Shown: in pieces, positions 3,458-28,531 of the stretch
How the letters are laid out: every line of letters begins with the position of its first letter
Numbering within the stretch: the stretch's first letter is position 1
Virus record (IMG/VR): IMGVR_UViG_3300037067_013378
Coordinates: 71,614 to 135,613 of that record
Origin: a virus
Taxonomy: Duplodnaviria; Caudoviricetes
DNA length: 64,000 nt
Reading direction: 5' to 3' (one strand)
The notes under the pieces: model-generated
Told to the model about the DNA's origin: nothing
The model's database searches: none
Seen by the model: only the letters and a program-made list of their open reading frames with translations
Translations under genes and position numbers: made by a program

Positions 3458-3743
3458 GGTTCCGTAGCTCAGTTGGATAGAGCAACAGACTTCAAGTTAG
3501 GAGCTTTAATATGGAATAAGTAACATATTAAATGGACAATGCTATATCGGTGGAGTCTTAACAGGTCAAGCTGATGATAATACCGAGGGAACTTCATAAA
3601 TTATGAAGACACCGTAGAGAGTAATACGCATTGCACCTGAAATGGTGAAGATGGATTCCAGACCACAAACATTGAAAAATGGTGGTGAAAACCATAGTGG
3701 TACGCTAATCTGTAGGTCAAGGGTTCGAATCCCTTCGGAATCA
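3458..3743 (+). tRNA. tRNA-Arg(TCT) interrupted by a group I intron
   Basis: Exons 3458-3492 and 3705-3743 join to ACAGA-CT TCT AA-TCTGT; acceptor GGTTCCG/CGGAATC. Confidence 0.9.
3493..3704 (+). ncRNA. Group I self-splicing intron (212 nt, no ORF)
   Basis: 5' exon ends in U, intron ends in G; P3 CAATGC/GCATTG, P4 TCGGT/ACCGA, P8 CACC/GGTG, R/S-like GTAGAGAGTA and AAGATGGATTCC. Confidence 0.85.
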
Positions 3744-3788: not shown

Positions 3789-4682
3789 ATGTTAATTTGT
3801 AAAATATGTAATAAAGAATTTAAAAATTTAAATGGGTTATCAAAACATTTATTAACACATCAATATAATTTAATAGATTATTATATTAAATTTGAAAATT
3901 TTAAAATTCCAAAATGTATATACTGTTCTAAAAATGCTAAATTAAGAAAAGGTATTATTTTCAATAAAACATGTTCTTCTGATGATTGTTTATCAAAAAT
4001 ATCTAAAGATAGAAAACATTCAGAAAAAAGTAAAAAAATAATATCGGATAAAAGAATAAATTATTTATTAAATAATAAAGATAAACACCCTTGGAAAAAT
4101 AATAATAAATTTATATCAAAACCATGTGAGTATTTTAAAAAAATTCTTTCAGAACATAATATAGAATATATAAGTGAGTTTAATCCAATAAAAGAACGCA
4201 ATTTTTCAATAGATATAGTAATTTTAAATAAAAAAATAGGTATAGAAATTAATGGTAATCAGCATTATAACAAAGATAAAACTTTAAAAAAATATTATAA
4301 AGAAAGAAAAGAAATAATAGAAAAAGATGGTTGGATTATATATGATATTCATTATAGTAAAGTATATGATATTAATTTTATAGAAAAATTTATACATAAT
4401 TTATTACAATTTCAAAATCAAGTGAATGTTGATTTCAATTTTAATATAAATAAAATTAAAAATAAAATATTTTGTTCAAATTGTGGCACTGAAATAACTA
4501 AATATTCTAAATCAGGATTGTGTAAAAAATGTGTAAAAACAATTTGTATTAAACGTAAATGTATAAACAGACCAACATATGATGAATTATATGAAAAAGT
4601 TAATAGATTTGGTTATAGAAAAACTGGAAAAATATATAATGTGTCTGATACTTGTATCAGAAATTGGTTAATTAAAAATTAA
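3789..4682 (+). CDS. DUF559/Vsr-like endonuclease with C2H2 and NUMOD3-like N-terminus and C-terminal HTH
   Basis: IDIVILNKKIGIEINGNQH..GWIIYDIHY; RKHSEKSKKIIS; YNVSDTCIRNWL. Confidence 0.75.
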   Translation: MLICKICNKEFKNLNGLSKHLLTHQYNLIDYYIKFENFKIPKCIYCSKNAKLRKGIIFNKTCSSDDCLSKISKDRKHSEKSKKIISDKRINYLLNNKDKHPWKNNNKFISKPCEYFKKILSEHNIEYISEFNPIKERNFSIDIVILNKKIGIEINGNQHYNKDKTLKKYYKERKEIIEKDGWIIYDIHYSKVYDINFIEKFIHNLLQFQNQVNVDFNFNINKIKNKIFCSNCGTEITKYSKSGLCKKCVKTICIKRKCINRPTYDELYEKVNRFGYRKTGKIYNVSDTCIRNWLIKN

Positions 4683-17390: not shown

Positions 17391-18719
17391 ATGAACTACC
17401 ACTAAACTAATGATTTAGTAGTTTCAGGTTTCATAGACTCGTCTACTGACAACGCCTCCACCTGTTTTTGTTTAATGTCCGACTCAATTCCTGAACCAGA
17501 CAATATTTTTAGACCTTGTTTTAAAATATTTTTACTTGCGTTAAAATCTCTATCATGATTTTCTCCACAAGAAGGACAAATCCATTCTCTAATGTTTAAA
17601 TTTAAATCTTGGTAAATCCATCCACAATTAGAACACATTTTTGATGAAGGAAAATATCTATCTATTTTAATAAAATGTTTATCGTTCCATTCACATTTAT
17701 ATTCCAGTTGTCTATAAAATTCACCCAAACTAACATCAGAAAATGATTGAGCTAAACTATGATTTTTCATCATATTTTTTACTGATAAATCTTCAACACA
17801 AATGATATCGTGGTTTTTGACTATTTCTGTGCTAATTTTATGTAGATAATCTTTTCTAATATTAGTTATTTTTTCATATATTATTGCAAGTTTTTTTCTT
17901 TGTTTATTTCTACTTGAACTATTTTTTACTTTTTTTGATAATTGTCTTTGTTTATGTTTTAATTTCTTTATATTATTTTTTAATGTTTTTATATTTTCAT
18001 AAATTTTTCCATCTGAAAGTATAGCTAAATCTTTTATACCAGTATCTATTCCTATTTTTGAACCAGTTTTTTCAAACTGTTCATGTTGAACTTCACAAGT
18101 TATTGATACATAATATTTTCCTGTTGTTGATTTAGATATCGTAGCAAATAATATTTTATCATTAATTTCTTTATATAAACATATTTTTATTCCTTCATTA
18201 AATTTTGGAATATACAATATATTATTTTTTATGGTTACAGATTGTGGTGTTTTAAATGACTGTCTATCATATTTTGATTTAAATTGTGGAAATTTAGTTT
18301 GTTTTCTAAAGAATTTCATATATGAAACATCTAAATTTCTTAGAGCAGACTGAAGTGATTGACTATTAATTTCTTTTAACCAAATAAAATTTTCATCCTT
18401 TTTTAACTGAGTTAAATCATTTGCATTATCATAATAATTAAGAGTTTTCTTATCTTCAATATAAGATTCTTTTCTTTTGTTTAAATAATGATTAAAAACA
18501 AATCTACAAGCACCGAAATGTTTAGACAACAATATTTCTTGTTCTTTTGTTGGATAAATTCTAAACTTAAATGATTTAAATATAGTTTTCATTATAACTA
18601 TATATTAAATTTTTTAAGTCTATTTTTACATTTTTTATACTTTTTTGTAGATTTTTTTTTAATTATTTTTAAATTATATTTGAAATTCATCCACGAAACT
18701 AAAGATTTCGTGGTTTTCT
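17391..18719 (-). mobile_element. IS200/IS605-family (IS1341-type, TnpB-only) insertion sequence
   Basis: Related subterminal hairpins CCACGAAA-N7-TTTCGTGG (18691-18713) and CCACTAAA-N7-TTTAGTAG (~17399-17421); right end TCAT, flanking TTGAA; no TSD. Confidence 0.8.
17402..18592 (-). CDS. tnpB: RNA-guided endonuclease TnpB
   Basis: HTH FKFRIYPT, RuvC GIDTG / VEDL / DRDFNA, zinc ribbon CSNCG..CPSCG. Confidence 0.95.
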   Translation of the reverse strand: MKTIFKSFKFRIYPTKEQEILLSKHFGACRFVFNHYLNKRKESYIEDKKTLNYYDNANDLTQLKKDENFIWLKEINSQSLQSALRNLDVSYMKFFRKQTKFPQFKSKYDRQSFKTPQSVTIKNNILYIPKFNEGIKICLYKEINDKILFATISKSTTGKYYVSITCEVQHEQFEKTGSKIGIDTGIKDLAILSDGKIYENIKTLKNNIKKLKHKQRQLSKKVKNSSSRNKQRKKLAIIYEKITNIRKDYLHKISTEIVKNHDIICVEDLSVKNMMKNHSLAQSFSDVSLGEFYRQLEYKCEWNDKHFIKIDRYFPSSKMCSNCGWIYQDLNLNIREWICPSCGENHDRDFNASKNILKQGLKILSGSGIESDIKQKQVEALSVDESMKPETTKSLV

Positions 18720-27253: not shown

Positions 27254-28531
27254 TTATTTTTTACTCTTATCATATGTTCTGGACTTAGCTTTGAAAGATA
27301 ATCTGTTAAAATTCGACCTACAAATTTTAGATTTCAATATATCATCTTTTGCTATAAAAACCCAACCTTCTGCTAATTGTGTTGGATTATTACCGAAAAC
27401 AGTGTAAAAATTATCTACATCTTTAAGTAACATTTCAGATGTTTCTGGTAATTTAAAATTATTATCAAGAATAGGAACTGTGTTTAACATCATTTCTTTA
27501 ATCATATCAATGAATTCATCATATGGGTAATAAAGAGATGTTTTAATATCAAAACTATTGTAAAAACAAATAGTTTTTTCTTTCAGTTTATAAATATTAC
27601 CTTGAATACCATCACCAACCAATTCACCTTGCAAAGAAAAATTAGGAATATTAAATTTAGAAGAAAATTCCCTCATTTTTTCTTCTACATTTAATTTTAT
27701 TGTAGTACTCCAATAATAGTTTACCAATTCATCATTCTCTGGTTTTTTGTAATTTATATTTCTACCACAAACACTAAACTCACCATTTTTTAAATTACAT
27801 GCGATGCTTGTACCTTCAAGTTTTTCGGTCTTATAATACAAGAATTGTTTTAATTTCTCATAATTTTTTTCCAAATTTTCAACTCTTTCTTCATCACTAA
27901 CCAAAATACCTACTTGTGCTAAATCACCAAGTACAATACCACCGTTAGAATTAACTTCAGGTGCTACATATTGAATAATACCTATAATATCAGTAACATC
28001 AAAATCTTCATCTAAAACTCTAACGTTTTTATTATATTCATTATTTGTTTGTTCAATAAAAACCTTATTGTTATTTGTAAATATTTTAGTGTTTTTATTA
28101 TTCAAAATTGATAATGGAAAACAAATACCTTGTGAAATCTGACCAAAAATTTCTCTTGTTTTAATACGAAATTTTCTTTCCCTTAAAAATTCAAATTCTG
28201 GTCTTGTGTTTTGTTTAGAAATTTCTTCCATTTCTTTCTTTATAGAAATTTTTTCTTCATCAACTTTTGATTTAGATAATTTCTTCTGTAATTCTTTCCA
28301 ACTCTGTTGTAATTCTTGTGATAAACCATCAGGCAAAACAGAATCAACTTCAACATATATACACAAATCACCAGCTTTAAACTCATTCTTCTTAACTACA
28401 ACATTCCAACCTCTAACTTTAGCTAATTCTAAATTATCAGAATCTTCAATTTGTGAAATATTTAAAATCTTTGCAACAGTTGCAAGTTTTCTGATATTTG
28501 CTGTTTCATTGATGTTTTGTACGTTTTCCAT
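27254..28531 (-). CDS. RNA ligase, DRB0094/Rnl2-related family
   Basis: RKLATV..GWNVVV..DSVLP N-domain; TEKLEGTS (motif I), QGELVG, EGWV, SFKAKS. Confidence 0.9.
   Translation of the reverse strand: MENVQNINETANIRKLATVAKILNISQIEDSDNLELAKVRGWNVVVKKNEFKAGDLCIYVEVDSVLPDGLSQELQQSWKELQKKLSKSKVDEEKISIKKEMEEISKQNTRPEFEFLRERKFRIKTREIFGQISQGICFPLSILNNKNTKIFTNNNKVFIEQTNNEYNKNVRVLDEDFDVTDIIGIIQYVAPEVNSNGGIVLGDLAQVGILVSDEERVENLEKNYEKLKQFLYYKTEKLEGTSIACNLKNGEFSVCGRNINYKKPENDELVNYYWSTTIKLNVEEKMREFSSKFNIPNFSLQGELVGDGIQGNIYKLKEKTICFYNSFDIKTSLYYPYDEFIDMIKEMMLNTVPILDNNFKLPETSEMLLKDVDNFYTVFGNNPTQLAEGWVFIAKDDILKSKICRSNFNRLSFKAKSRTYDKSKK

Follow-up and report, generated by a model that had tools for sequence, protein, structure and literature searches.

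Is the only tRNA-Arg(UCU) gene on a tailed-phage record split within its anticodon by a self-splicing group I intron, and does the nuclease gene that begins just downstream serve that intron or only itself? The locus lies in a window of 64,000 nt, the whole stretch of DNA analysed here, which forms the last 64 kb of the 135.6-kb IMG/VR record IMGVR_UViG_3300037067_013378 (CheckV completeness 19%). We consider it probable, at roughly 75%, that the gene encodes a tRNA-Arg(UCU) with a self-removing intron of the Arg.3Ug setting and that the downstream gene, ORF 3789, is a separate selfish homing endonuclease.

Matches to a major head protein (phrog_138, E=4e-27) and to a head maturation protease among the products of the record lead us to read the carrier as a large tailed phage, in keeping with the phage origin originally proposed for the tRNA. 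A giant virus or a bacterial fragment was weighed as well, given a G+C content of about 21% across the window, a C2H2 finger, a histidine kinase and ClpB, and the head protein and head protease favour a tailed phage. The tRNA complement of the record consists of 28 ordinary genes and the split one, which is both the sole tRNA-Arg(UCU) gene in the 135.6 kb and the sole member of its intron family there. AGA accounts for 84% of Arg codons in the long ORFs of the record and no other AGA reader was found in it, so a working tRNA-Arg(UCU) product would matter to the phage unless the host supplies one. A search for syntenic relatives of the phage via two neighbouring ORFs found none.

By its gene content the record appears heavily colonised by selfish nucleases. 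Among the tRNA genes of the window are a treble-clef protein (1-750) and, at 1505-2515, a 336-aa HNH/endonuclease I-like ORF, both homing-endonuclease-like. A tRNA-rich region also holds a complete IS605 OrfB/TnpB-type protein (17402-18592, minus strand; phrog_506, E=1.5e-131) with OrfB_IS605, Cas12f1-like TNB and HTH domains. A third homing-endonuclease-like ORF among the tRNA genes of the record, at G000:C1:34865-36412, encodes a 515-aa HNH protein (phrog_559, E=2e-85). Upstream of the window, a 1235-aa ORF on the plus strand (G000:C1:1676-5383; L329:1676-5383) matches Pfam RuvC_III, the Cas9 RuvC subdomain 3 (E=3.7e-11), and no PHROG, which suggests a Cas9- or IscB-like nuclease on the phage record.

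The split gene escapes both plain ARAGORN and the Rfam tRNA model. It was located with ARAGORN allowing introns, after which the junction was re-mapped to U(-1) and omega-G. Helices P1-P10 of the insert were sketched manually on a pair of sequences, and the drawing was then checked against 13 aligned viral homologues (alignment A2). The resulting features, all on the plus strand, are as follows.

3458-3492, plus: 5' exon of tRNA-Arg(UCU) (sequence; ARAGORN tRNA-Arg(tct) on the spliced product)
3493-3704, plus: group I intron, 212 nt, ORF-less, IC3-like, setting Arg.3Ug, omega-G at 3704 (HMM, covariation, MFE)
3490-3503, plus: P1, exon CUU (3490-3492) with guide GAG (3501-3503), U-G wobble at the splice site (covariation)
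3497-3500 with 3705-3708, plus: P10, UUAG with CUAA, the first four bases of the 3' exon (covariation)
3505-3512 with 3525-3532, plus: P2 hairpin (covariation; MFE fold)
3537-3633, plus: P3, 3537-3542 with 3628-3633, enclosing P4, P5 and P6 (covariation; MFE fold)
3547-3551 with 3582-3586, plus: P4 (invariant in A2; in MFE fold)
3556-3557 with 3576-3577, plus: base of P5 (in MFE fold)
3587-3588 with 3612-3613, plus: P6, with the additional hairpin P6a (invariant in A2; in MFE fold)
3617-3659, plus: P7, G[A]GAGU (3617-3622) with AUUCC (3655-3659), bulged A3618, pseudoknot with P3 (covariation)
3634-3637 with 3644-3647, plus: P8, followed by J8/7 AAGAUGG, enclosed by P7 (in MFE fold)
3662-3701, plus: three-way P9, outer helix ACCAC/GUGGU (3662-3666 with 3697-3701) and two inner hairpins, the second GAAA-capped
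3705-3743, plus: 3' exon of tRNA-Arg(UCU) (sequence; ARAGORN on the spliced product)

The 5' exon comprises the acceptor strand GGUUCCG, a D arm with A20, the 5' anticodon stem ACAGA and loop bases C32, U33 and U34, terminating in ...ACAGACUU. The 3' exon begins CUAAUCUGU and supplies C35, U36, A37 and A38, the 3' anticodon stem UCUGU, a variable loop, the T arm, the acceptor strand and discriminator A; CCA is not encoded. Joined after the first anticodon base, the halves form a 74-nt tRNA that ARAGORN calls tRNA-Arg(tct). U34 of the tRNA is U(-1) of the intron, and the 212-nt insert, with a G+C content about twice that of the surrounding DNA, terminates in ...GGUACG. A 7-nt loop would also result from a junction at 35/36, and from no other, but this alternative was rejected: the intron would then end in C, without an omega-G. 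The extent (3458-3743) and the split between positions 34 and 35 given in the original prediction proved exact on both the sequence and ARAGORN. The insert had also been described as ORF-less, which it is, with no ORF of at least 50 aa on either strand of 3493-3704.

The covariation evidence identifies the insert as a group I intron. Over the 13 viral homologues the 45 modelled pairs are 95.3% paired, compared with 34-44% after a shift of the 3' partners by 1-3 columns. Changes on both sides occur in 21 pairs, and none of 500 shuffles matches the observed values. These compensatory changes fall mostly in P2 (8 pairs, 7 changed on both sides, 100% paired), P3 (5 of 6 pairs changed on both sides, 97% paired), P7 (2 pairs changed on both sides, 98.5% paired) and P9, the outer helix of which is 97% paired with 2 pairs changed on both sides. 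P4, P6 and P8 are invariant in the alignment and hence uninformative for covariation. P1 is 100% paired, with the splice-site U-G wobble invariant in 13/13 sequences. In P10, the splice-proximal pair follows anticodon base 35, being G-C in Arg, U-A in UAU tRNAs and G-U in Lys; this covariation with the second anticodon base fixes the 3' junction independently. The G[A]G in the 5' strand of P7 has both of its G-C pairs invariant in 13/13 sequences, and the invariant G-C after the bulged A is presumed to be the guanosine-binding pair, by analogy with group I introns in general. Folded alone, the intron reaches a minimum free energy with z=-3.9 relative to shuffles, and the fold recovers P2-P6, P8 and the three-way P9 including its inner hairpins. 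P3, P4 and P8 had been recognised at the outset, and they hold together with the other core helices.

Leaving the window out, we built an HMM from 80 other ORF-less members of the family; it matches 3495-3703 (E=1.8e-41, 135 bits), and its envelope ends exactly at 3704. The check with a general group I model that had been proposed turned out differently: Rfam Intron_gpI has no match in the window even at E<=10, so the intron stays below the RF00028 gathering threshold. The only match to that model among the sequences run is a homologue (L001) at 23.3 bits over the full model, for a listed gathering score of 50. We considered the missing match as evidence against an intron and set it aside, because the model is known to detect bacterial tRNA introns poorly and the family HMM settles the matter. 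Williams 2020 (bioRxiv 10.1101/2020.01.27.920355) likewise describes the Rfam group I model as lacking bacterial seeds and applies its own cut-offs of 18-20 bits. The identification of 3493-3704 as a group I intron is secure, and its splicing is what the structure leads us to expect.

If so, a 286-nt precursor would be transcribed from 3458-3743, and the 212-nt intron would excise itself along the usual group I route. The first attack, by free guanosine sitting at the P7 G-C pair, would fall after U34, the base that P1 would hold in a U-G wobble with the GAG guide. P10 (UUAG with CUAA) would align the 3' exon, and the freed 3'-OH of U34 would then attack after omega-G 3704 and join the exons into a normal 74-nt tRNA. 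A phage RNA ligase lies amid the tRNA arrays of the window (27254-28531, minus strand; PHA02142 OB-fold plus RNA_ligase; phrog_968, E=3.5e-50); such an enzyme is unneeded for group I splicing and bears on tRNA repair.

How common is this intron? As a search key we used the 19-nt P8 and J8/7 motif CACCTGARATGGTGAAGAT, matched exactly, and the resulting counts are lower bounds. Two earlier viral patterns, the first stricter and the second looser, had returned 1 locus and at least 117 loci, respectively, the latter mostly left out of the analysis. The motif occurs in 24 IMG/VR loci and in at least 120 species-representative bacterial genomes, and 122 of the 145 matches listed are enclosed by an intron-split tRNA. 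Among these listed matches, tRNA-Arg(UCU) split at 34/35 accounts for 91/98 resolved bacterial species loci; in viruses it accounts for 10/16 resolved loci. The other resolved loci are tRNA(UAU), tRNA-Lys(UUU) and one tRNA-Glu(UUC) split at 35/36. Bacterial carriers include Bacillus (among them members of the B. cereus group), Exiguobacterium, Lysinibacillus, Chitinophagales, Cytophagales, Arenicellales and Chloroflexi. The original prediction had called Arg(UCU) an unusual host, a view that these counts overturn, as does the presence of the Arg.3Ug setting in the seed alignment of Williams 2020. That study raises the known tRNA intron settings from 4 to 21, and its seed alignment contains Rba190.Arg.3Ug with an identical P1 (CUUC...GGAG). 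The window intron, inserted at 34/35 of a tRNA-Arg with U34 and sharing a homologous core, belongs to this setting and is a new phage-borne case of a type already catalogued in bacteria. A search of the one library available to us found no paper describing group I introns in phage tRNA genes, which is no proof that none exists.

Aligned over its full length, the window copy shares about 75% identity with a Cytophagales MAG copy and with copies from viral contigs, and its core is about 75-80% identical to those of bacterial copies at 34/35 of tRNA-Arg(UCU). At 212 nt, compared with a bacterial median of 291, it sits at the short end of the family. An ORF is present in the longer copies (about 600-655 nt); it is of the HNH_3 type in viral loci and of the PDDEXK_5 type in bacterial loci. 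The family is therefore a mobile one of which the window copy is an ORF-less member. PDDEXK_5 is the Pfam family of I-Ssp6803I. The same intron family also sits at 35/36 of a viral tRNA-Glu(UUC) (L126:440-680), so both the host tRNA and the position in the loop have changed during its spread. Among phage records searched with BLAST, a 485-kb uncultured phage (LR745208, locus L001) has a core 78% identical to that of the window copy; there the intron splits another tRNA, with loop CUU/AUAA and anticodon UAU. The 3' third of the window intron resembles the 3' ends of GIY-YIG-bearing introns in DnaB helicase genes of crAss-like phages, which suggests that phage tRNA and protein-gene introns share, or have exchanged, 3' domains. 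In two such GIY-YIG-bearing DnaB introns (L002:1340-1560 and L004), the stretch from the P7 3' strand to P9 is about 85% identical to the tRNA intron.

The second half of the question concerns ORF 3789, which starts 45 nt past the tRNA end, as had been noted, and is organised as follows.

3789-4682, plus: free-standing nuclease gene, 297 aa (Pfam sub-threshold, AlphaFold2, Foldseek, homologues)
ORF 3789 residues 3-24: C2H2 zinc finger
ORF 3789 residues ~112-205: Vsr/DUF559/MTES_1575-like nuclease core
ORF 3789 residues 229-248: zinc ribbon CxxC...CxxC
ORF 3789 residues ~255-296: C-terminal HTH

Its Pfam matches (C2H2 finger, MTES_1575, RAP and DUF559) are all sub-threshold, the DUF559 and MTES_1575 matches scoring 24.4 bits versus a cut-off of 38.2 and 16.5 versus 20.6. 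MTES_1575 is nevertheless matched by 24 of 32 aligned homologues, and the L126 homologue passes the DUF559 cut-off with 52 bits. There are at least 234 homologues, the close ones full length, and some carry NUMOD3. D142, E153, N155, G156 and H159 are invariant across the 32 aligned homologues, giving a motif D...E-x-N-G-x-x-H in which the canonical D of ExDG is replaced by N throughout the family. The AlphaFold2 model has a pLDDT of 89.7, and the top Foldseek match is the catalytic domain of I-Bth0305I (3R3P; E=3.3e-4, target TM 0.79-0.80), followed by RAP-domain proteins, Vsr and a DUF559 protein; the PDB entries that come after it include 1cw0, 1vsr and 3hrl. The protein thus combines a Vsr-like fold with conserved acidic and His residues (D142, E153 and H159). 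When the nuclease alignment was run as a profile against PDB sequences, only zinc-ribbon noise came back and the I-Bth0305I match was lost. ORF 3789 was also compared with the intron-borne ORFs, and no direct homology emerged. The free-standing endonuclease proposed downstream is therefore backed by an intact ORF, a homing-endonuclease fold and a Vsr/DUF559-like domain. As modelled, ORF 3789 has the build of a phage homing endonuclease; that the protein cleaves DNA, and where, we infer.

Where such nucleases reside was assessed in 67 viral loci encoding ORF 3789 homologues, a set that lies outside the closest homologues (P0002-P0018). On unrelated contigs, and with a patchy spread, 61 of the 67 lie in tRNA clusters, in intergenic positions. 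For 23 of these 61, Arg(UCU) is the tRNA closest to the nuclease gene, although it makes up only 31 of 367 flanking tRNAs, contig relatedness being ignored in this comparison. In 30 loci a tRNA-Arg(UCU) gene lies within 450 nt of the nuclease gene, and it is uninterrupted in all 30. This sporadic, mobile-like distribution beside a conserved target gene is clearly that of a nuclease family which, as far as genomic position can tell, favours tRNA-Arg(UCU). Sequence diversity among the 31 adjacent tRNA-Arg(UCU) genes is high: apart from the anticodon loop YUUCUAA, their only Arg-specific common element, and the T-loop, they have little in common. In four homologue loci, besides that of L126, the tRNA just upstream holds another IC3-like intron (Thr(UGU), Leu(UAA), Asn(GUU) and one unassigned), and the family HMM also matches a tRNA-Leu(UAA) intron and others in L306, L292 and L299. 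At L263:2050-2316 (IMGVR_UViG_3300033514_000249), a split tRNA has halves nearly identical to those of the window tRNA-Arg. Its candidate loop is UUUU/AAA with anticodon UUA, a possible ochre suppressor, although the junction is putative. The intron in this tRNA is another, also IC3-like one, and an ORF 3789 homologue with 40% identity comes after the gene.

With the nuclease next to the intron, collaborative homing has to be weighed. The nuclease would cut intron-less tRNA-Arg(UCU) genes near the anticodon loop, the intron would split that site and so protect its own genome, and repair of the cut rival genome would co-convert intron and nuclease gene, as for F-CphI with the S-PM2 psbA intron. 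The concept is established in the literature (review PMC3984707), and the enrichment of the nuclease family beside tRNA-Arg(UCU) fits it. The anticodon loop shared by the adjacent genes would be the simplest family-wide Arg-specific target, and it is where the intron sits. A homologue of ORF 3789 (L126; hhalign 99.2%) also lies 110 nt past a tRNA-Glu(UUC) split by the same intron family, and free-standing nucleases of other types, PDDEXK_5 in L059 and HNH in L137, follow intron-split tRNA-Arg(UCU) genes and carry the ORF 3789-type C-terminal zinc ribbon and HTH. The four homologue loci with another IC3-like intron in the upstream tRNA likewise speak for a link. However, the Arg(UCU) gene holds an intron in 0 of the 67 viral nuclease-homologue loci. 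The neighbouring Arg(UCU) genes are nearly all intron-less, and the intron is therefore not needed for the self-immunity of those nucleases, which cannot be intron-derived there. Most intron-bearing viral tRNA-Arg(UCU) genes with readable downstream DNA have no recognisable nuclease gene beside them, and the intron family owns internal endonucleases. We regard collaborative homing at this locus as possible but doubtful. A broader idea, which we rate as speculative and rather unlikely, is that phage tRNA-Arg(UCU) is a battleground on which a guild of nucleases with one zinc-ribbon/HTH module and swapped catalytic domains, Vsr-like in ORF 3789, PD-(D/E)XK in L059 and HNH in L137, targets anticodon-loop DNA and inserts in the loop confer immunity; loop inserts such as the group I intron would then persist by breaking the target site.

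Either component could also be less than it seems. The intron might be a dead relic in a pseudogene tRNA, with the phage using the host tRNA-Arg(UCU). Its P7 has one G-U and a terminal A-G mismatch where relatives pair Watson-Crick and is thus weaker than theirs, and an ORF-less copy is what would be expected past the mobile phase. Against this, all core helices and all family-invariant columns are intact, the exons form a canonical tRNA, the family HMM matches the intron along its entire length (135 bits), and the heavy use of AGA in a record with no second reader argues for a functional gene, which makes a relic highly improbable. Alternatively, ORF 3789 might be a Vsr-type repair protein or a regulatory DNA-binding protein that lies in the tRNA region by chance: some sources name homologues 'very-short-patch-repair endonuclease', the Pfam matches of the window protein are sub-threshold, and the family has lost the canonical D of ExDG. 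Yet its top structural match is the domain of a proven homing endonuclease, the combination of zinc finger, nuclease, zinc ribbon and HTH (with NUMOD3 in some homologues) is the architecture of phage homing endonucleases, and the family is patchy on unrelated viral contigs and intergenic in tRNA arrays, all of which make this role improbable. We instead favour two selfish elements that both home to the neighbourhood of tRNA anticodon loops and would therefore meet, which appears a better reading than collaborative homing; their independence is argued from other loci, the two being adjacent in this phage. The intron is an ORF-less member of a widespread mobile family, same-site copies of which carry HNH or PD-(D/E)XK homing endonuclease genes elsewhere, and ORF 3789 would be a homing endonuclease, Vsr-like and free-standing, whose family takes up positions next to phage tRNA genes and next to tRNA-Arg(UCU) most of all.

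The relevance of the locus is moderate and lies in annotation and in the study of intron/endonuclease partnerships; knowledge of group I introns themselves is unchanged by it. Standard tRNA finders and Rfam overlook the split gene, and the phage would consequently be scored as lacking a reader for AGA, which makes up 84% of its Arg codons. Numerous bacterial genomes have their copies of the intron concealed by the same blind spot, among them members of the B. cereus group, for which a 2008 survey of 29 genomes (PMC2504315) stated that tRNA introns were absent. Several B. cereus-group species representatives, among L153, L172, L205, L151 and other Bacillus loci, carry the tRNA-Arg(UCU) 34/35 intron. 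The locus also provides a concrete test case of how free-standing nucleases and ORF-less introns come to one target, with a nuclease family tied to tRNA-Arg(UCU) and three catalytic domains sharing one DNA-binding tail beside split copies.

Among known systems, the classical IC3 tRNA introns are those of cyanobacterial and plastid tRNA-Leu(UAA) (at 34/35), Azoarcus tRNA-Ile(CAU), Agrobacterium tRNA-Arg(CCU) and Synechocystis tRNA-fMet, the last with I-Ssp6803I. The window intron shares their small size, 3-bp exon-guide P1, P2 without P2.1, simple P5 and anticodon-loop insertion. It differs from them in its tRNA, in J4/6 and P6, which read CCGAGGGAAC and not CCGAGCCAAGC, and in the P7 5' strand, CCGUAGAGA, and it is divergent enough to escape Rfam Intron_gpI. 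Arg.3Ug, as represented by Rba190.Arg.3Ug in the seed alignment of Williams 2020, is alike in isotype, 34/35 insertion (after the third loop base), U(-1), omega-G and P1; that intron comes from a bacterial chromosome, whereas the window copy is ORF-less, 212 nt long and on a tailed-phage record. Collaborative homing is known from F-CphI with the ORF-less psbA intron of cyanophage S-PM2 and from mobE/I-TevIII in T4 (PMC3984707; PMC2790892; PMC6083498). The window differs from both in that the host gene is a tRNA gene, the nuclease is Vsr-like and its relatives lie mostly beside intron-less copies. I-Bth0305I, the Vsr-like EDxHD-family enzyme of a Bacillus phage intron (3R3P), is the best structural match of the ORF 3789 core, although the phmmer match is weak, identity is 19%, and ORF 3789 is free-standing with an added C2H2 finger, zinc ribbon and HTH. 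Within the tRNA gene cluster of T4 lies SegB, a free-standing homing endonuclease of the GIY-YIG type that presumably cuts the tRNA region of rivals; it differs in nuclease family and involves no intron, but like ORF 3789 it is a free-standing gene among phage tRNAs.
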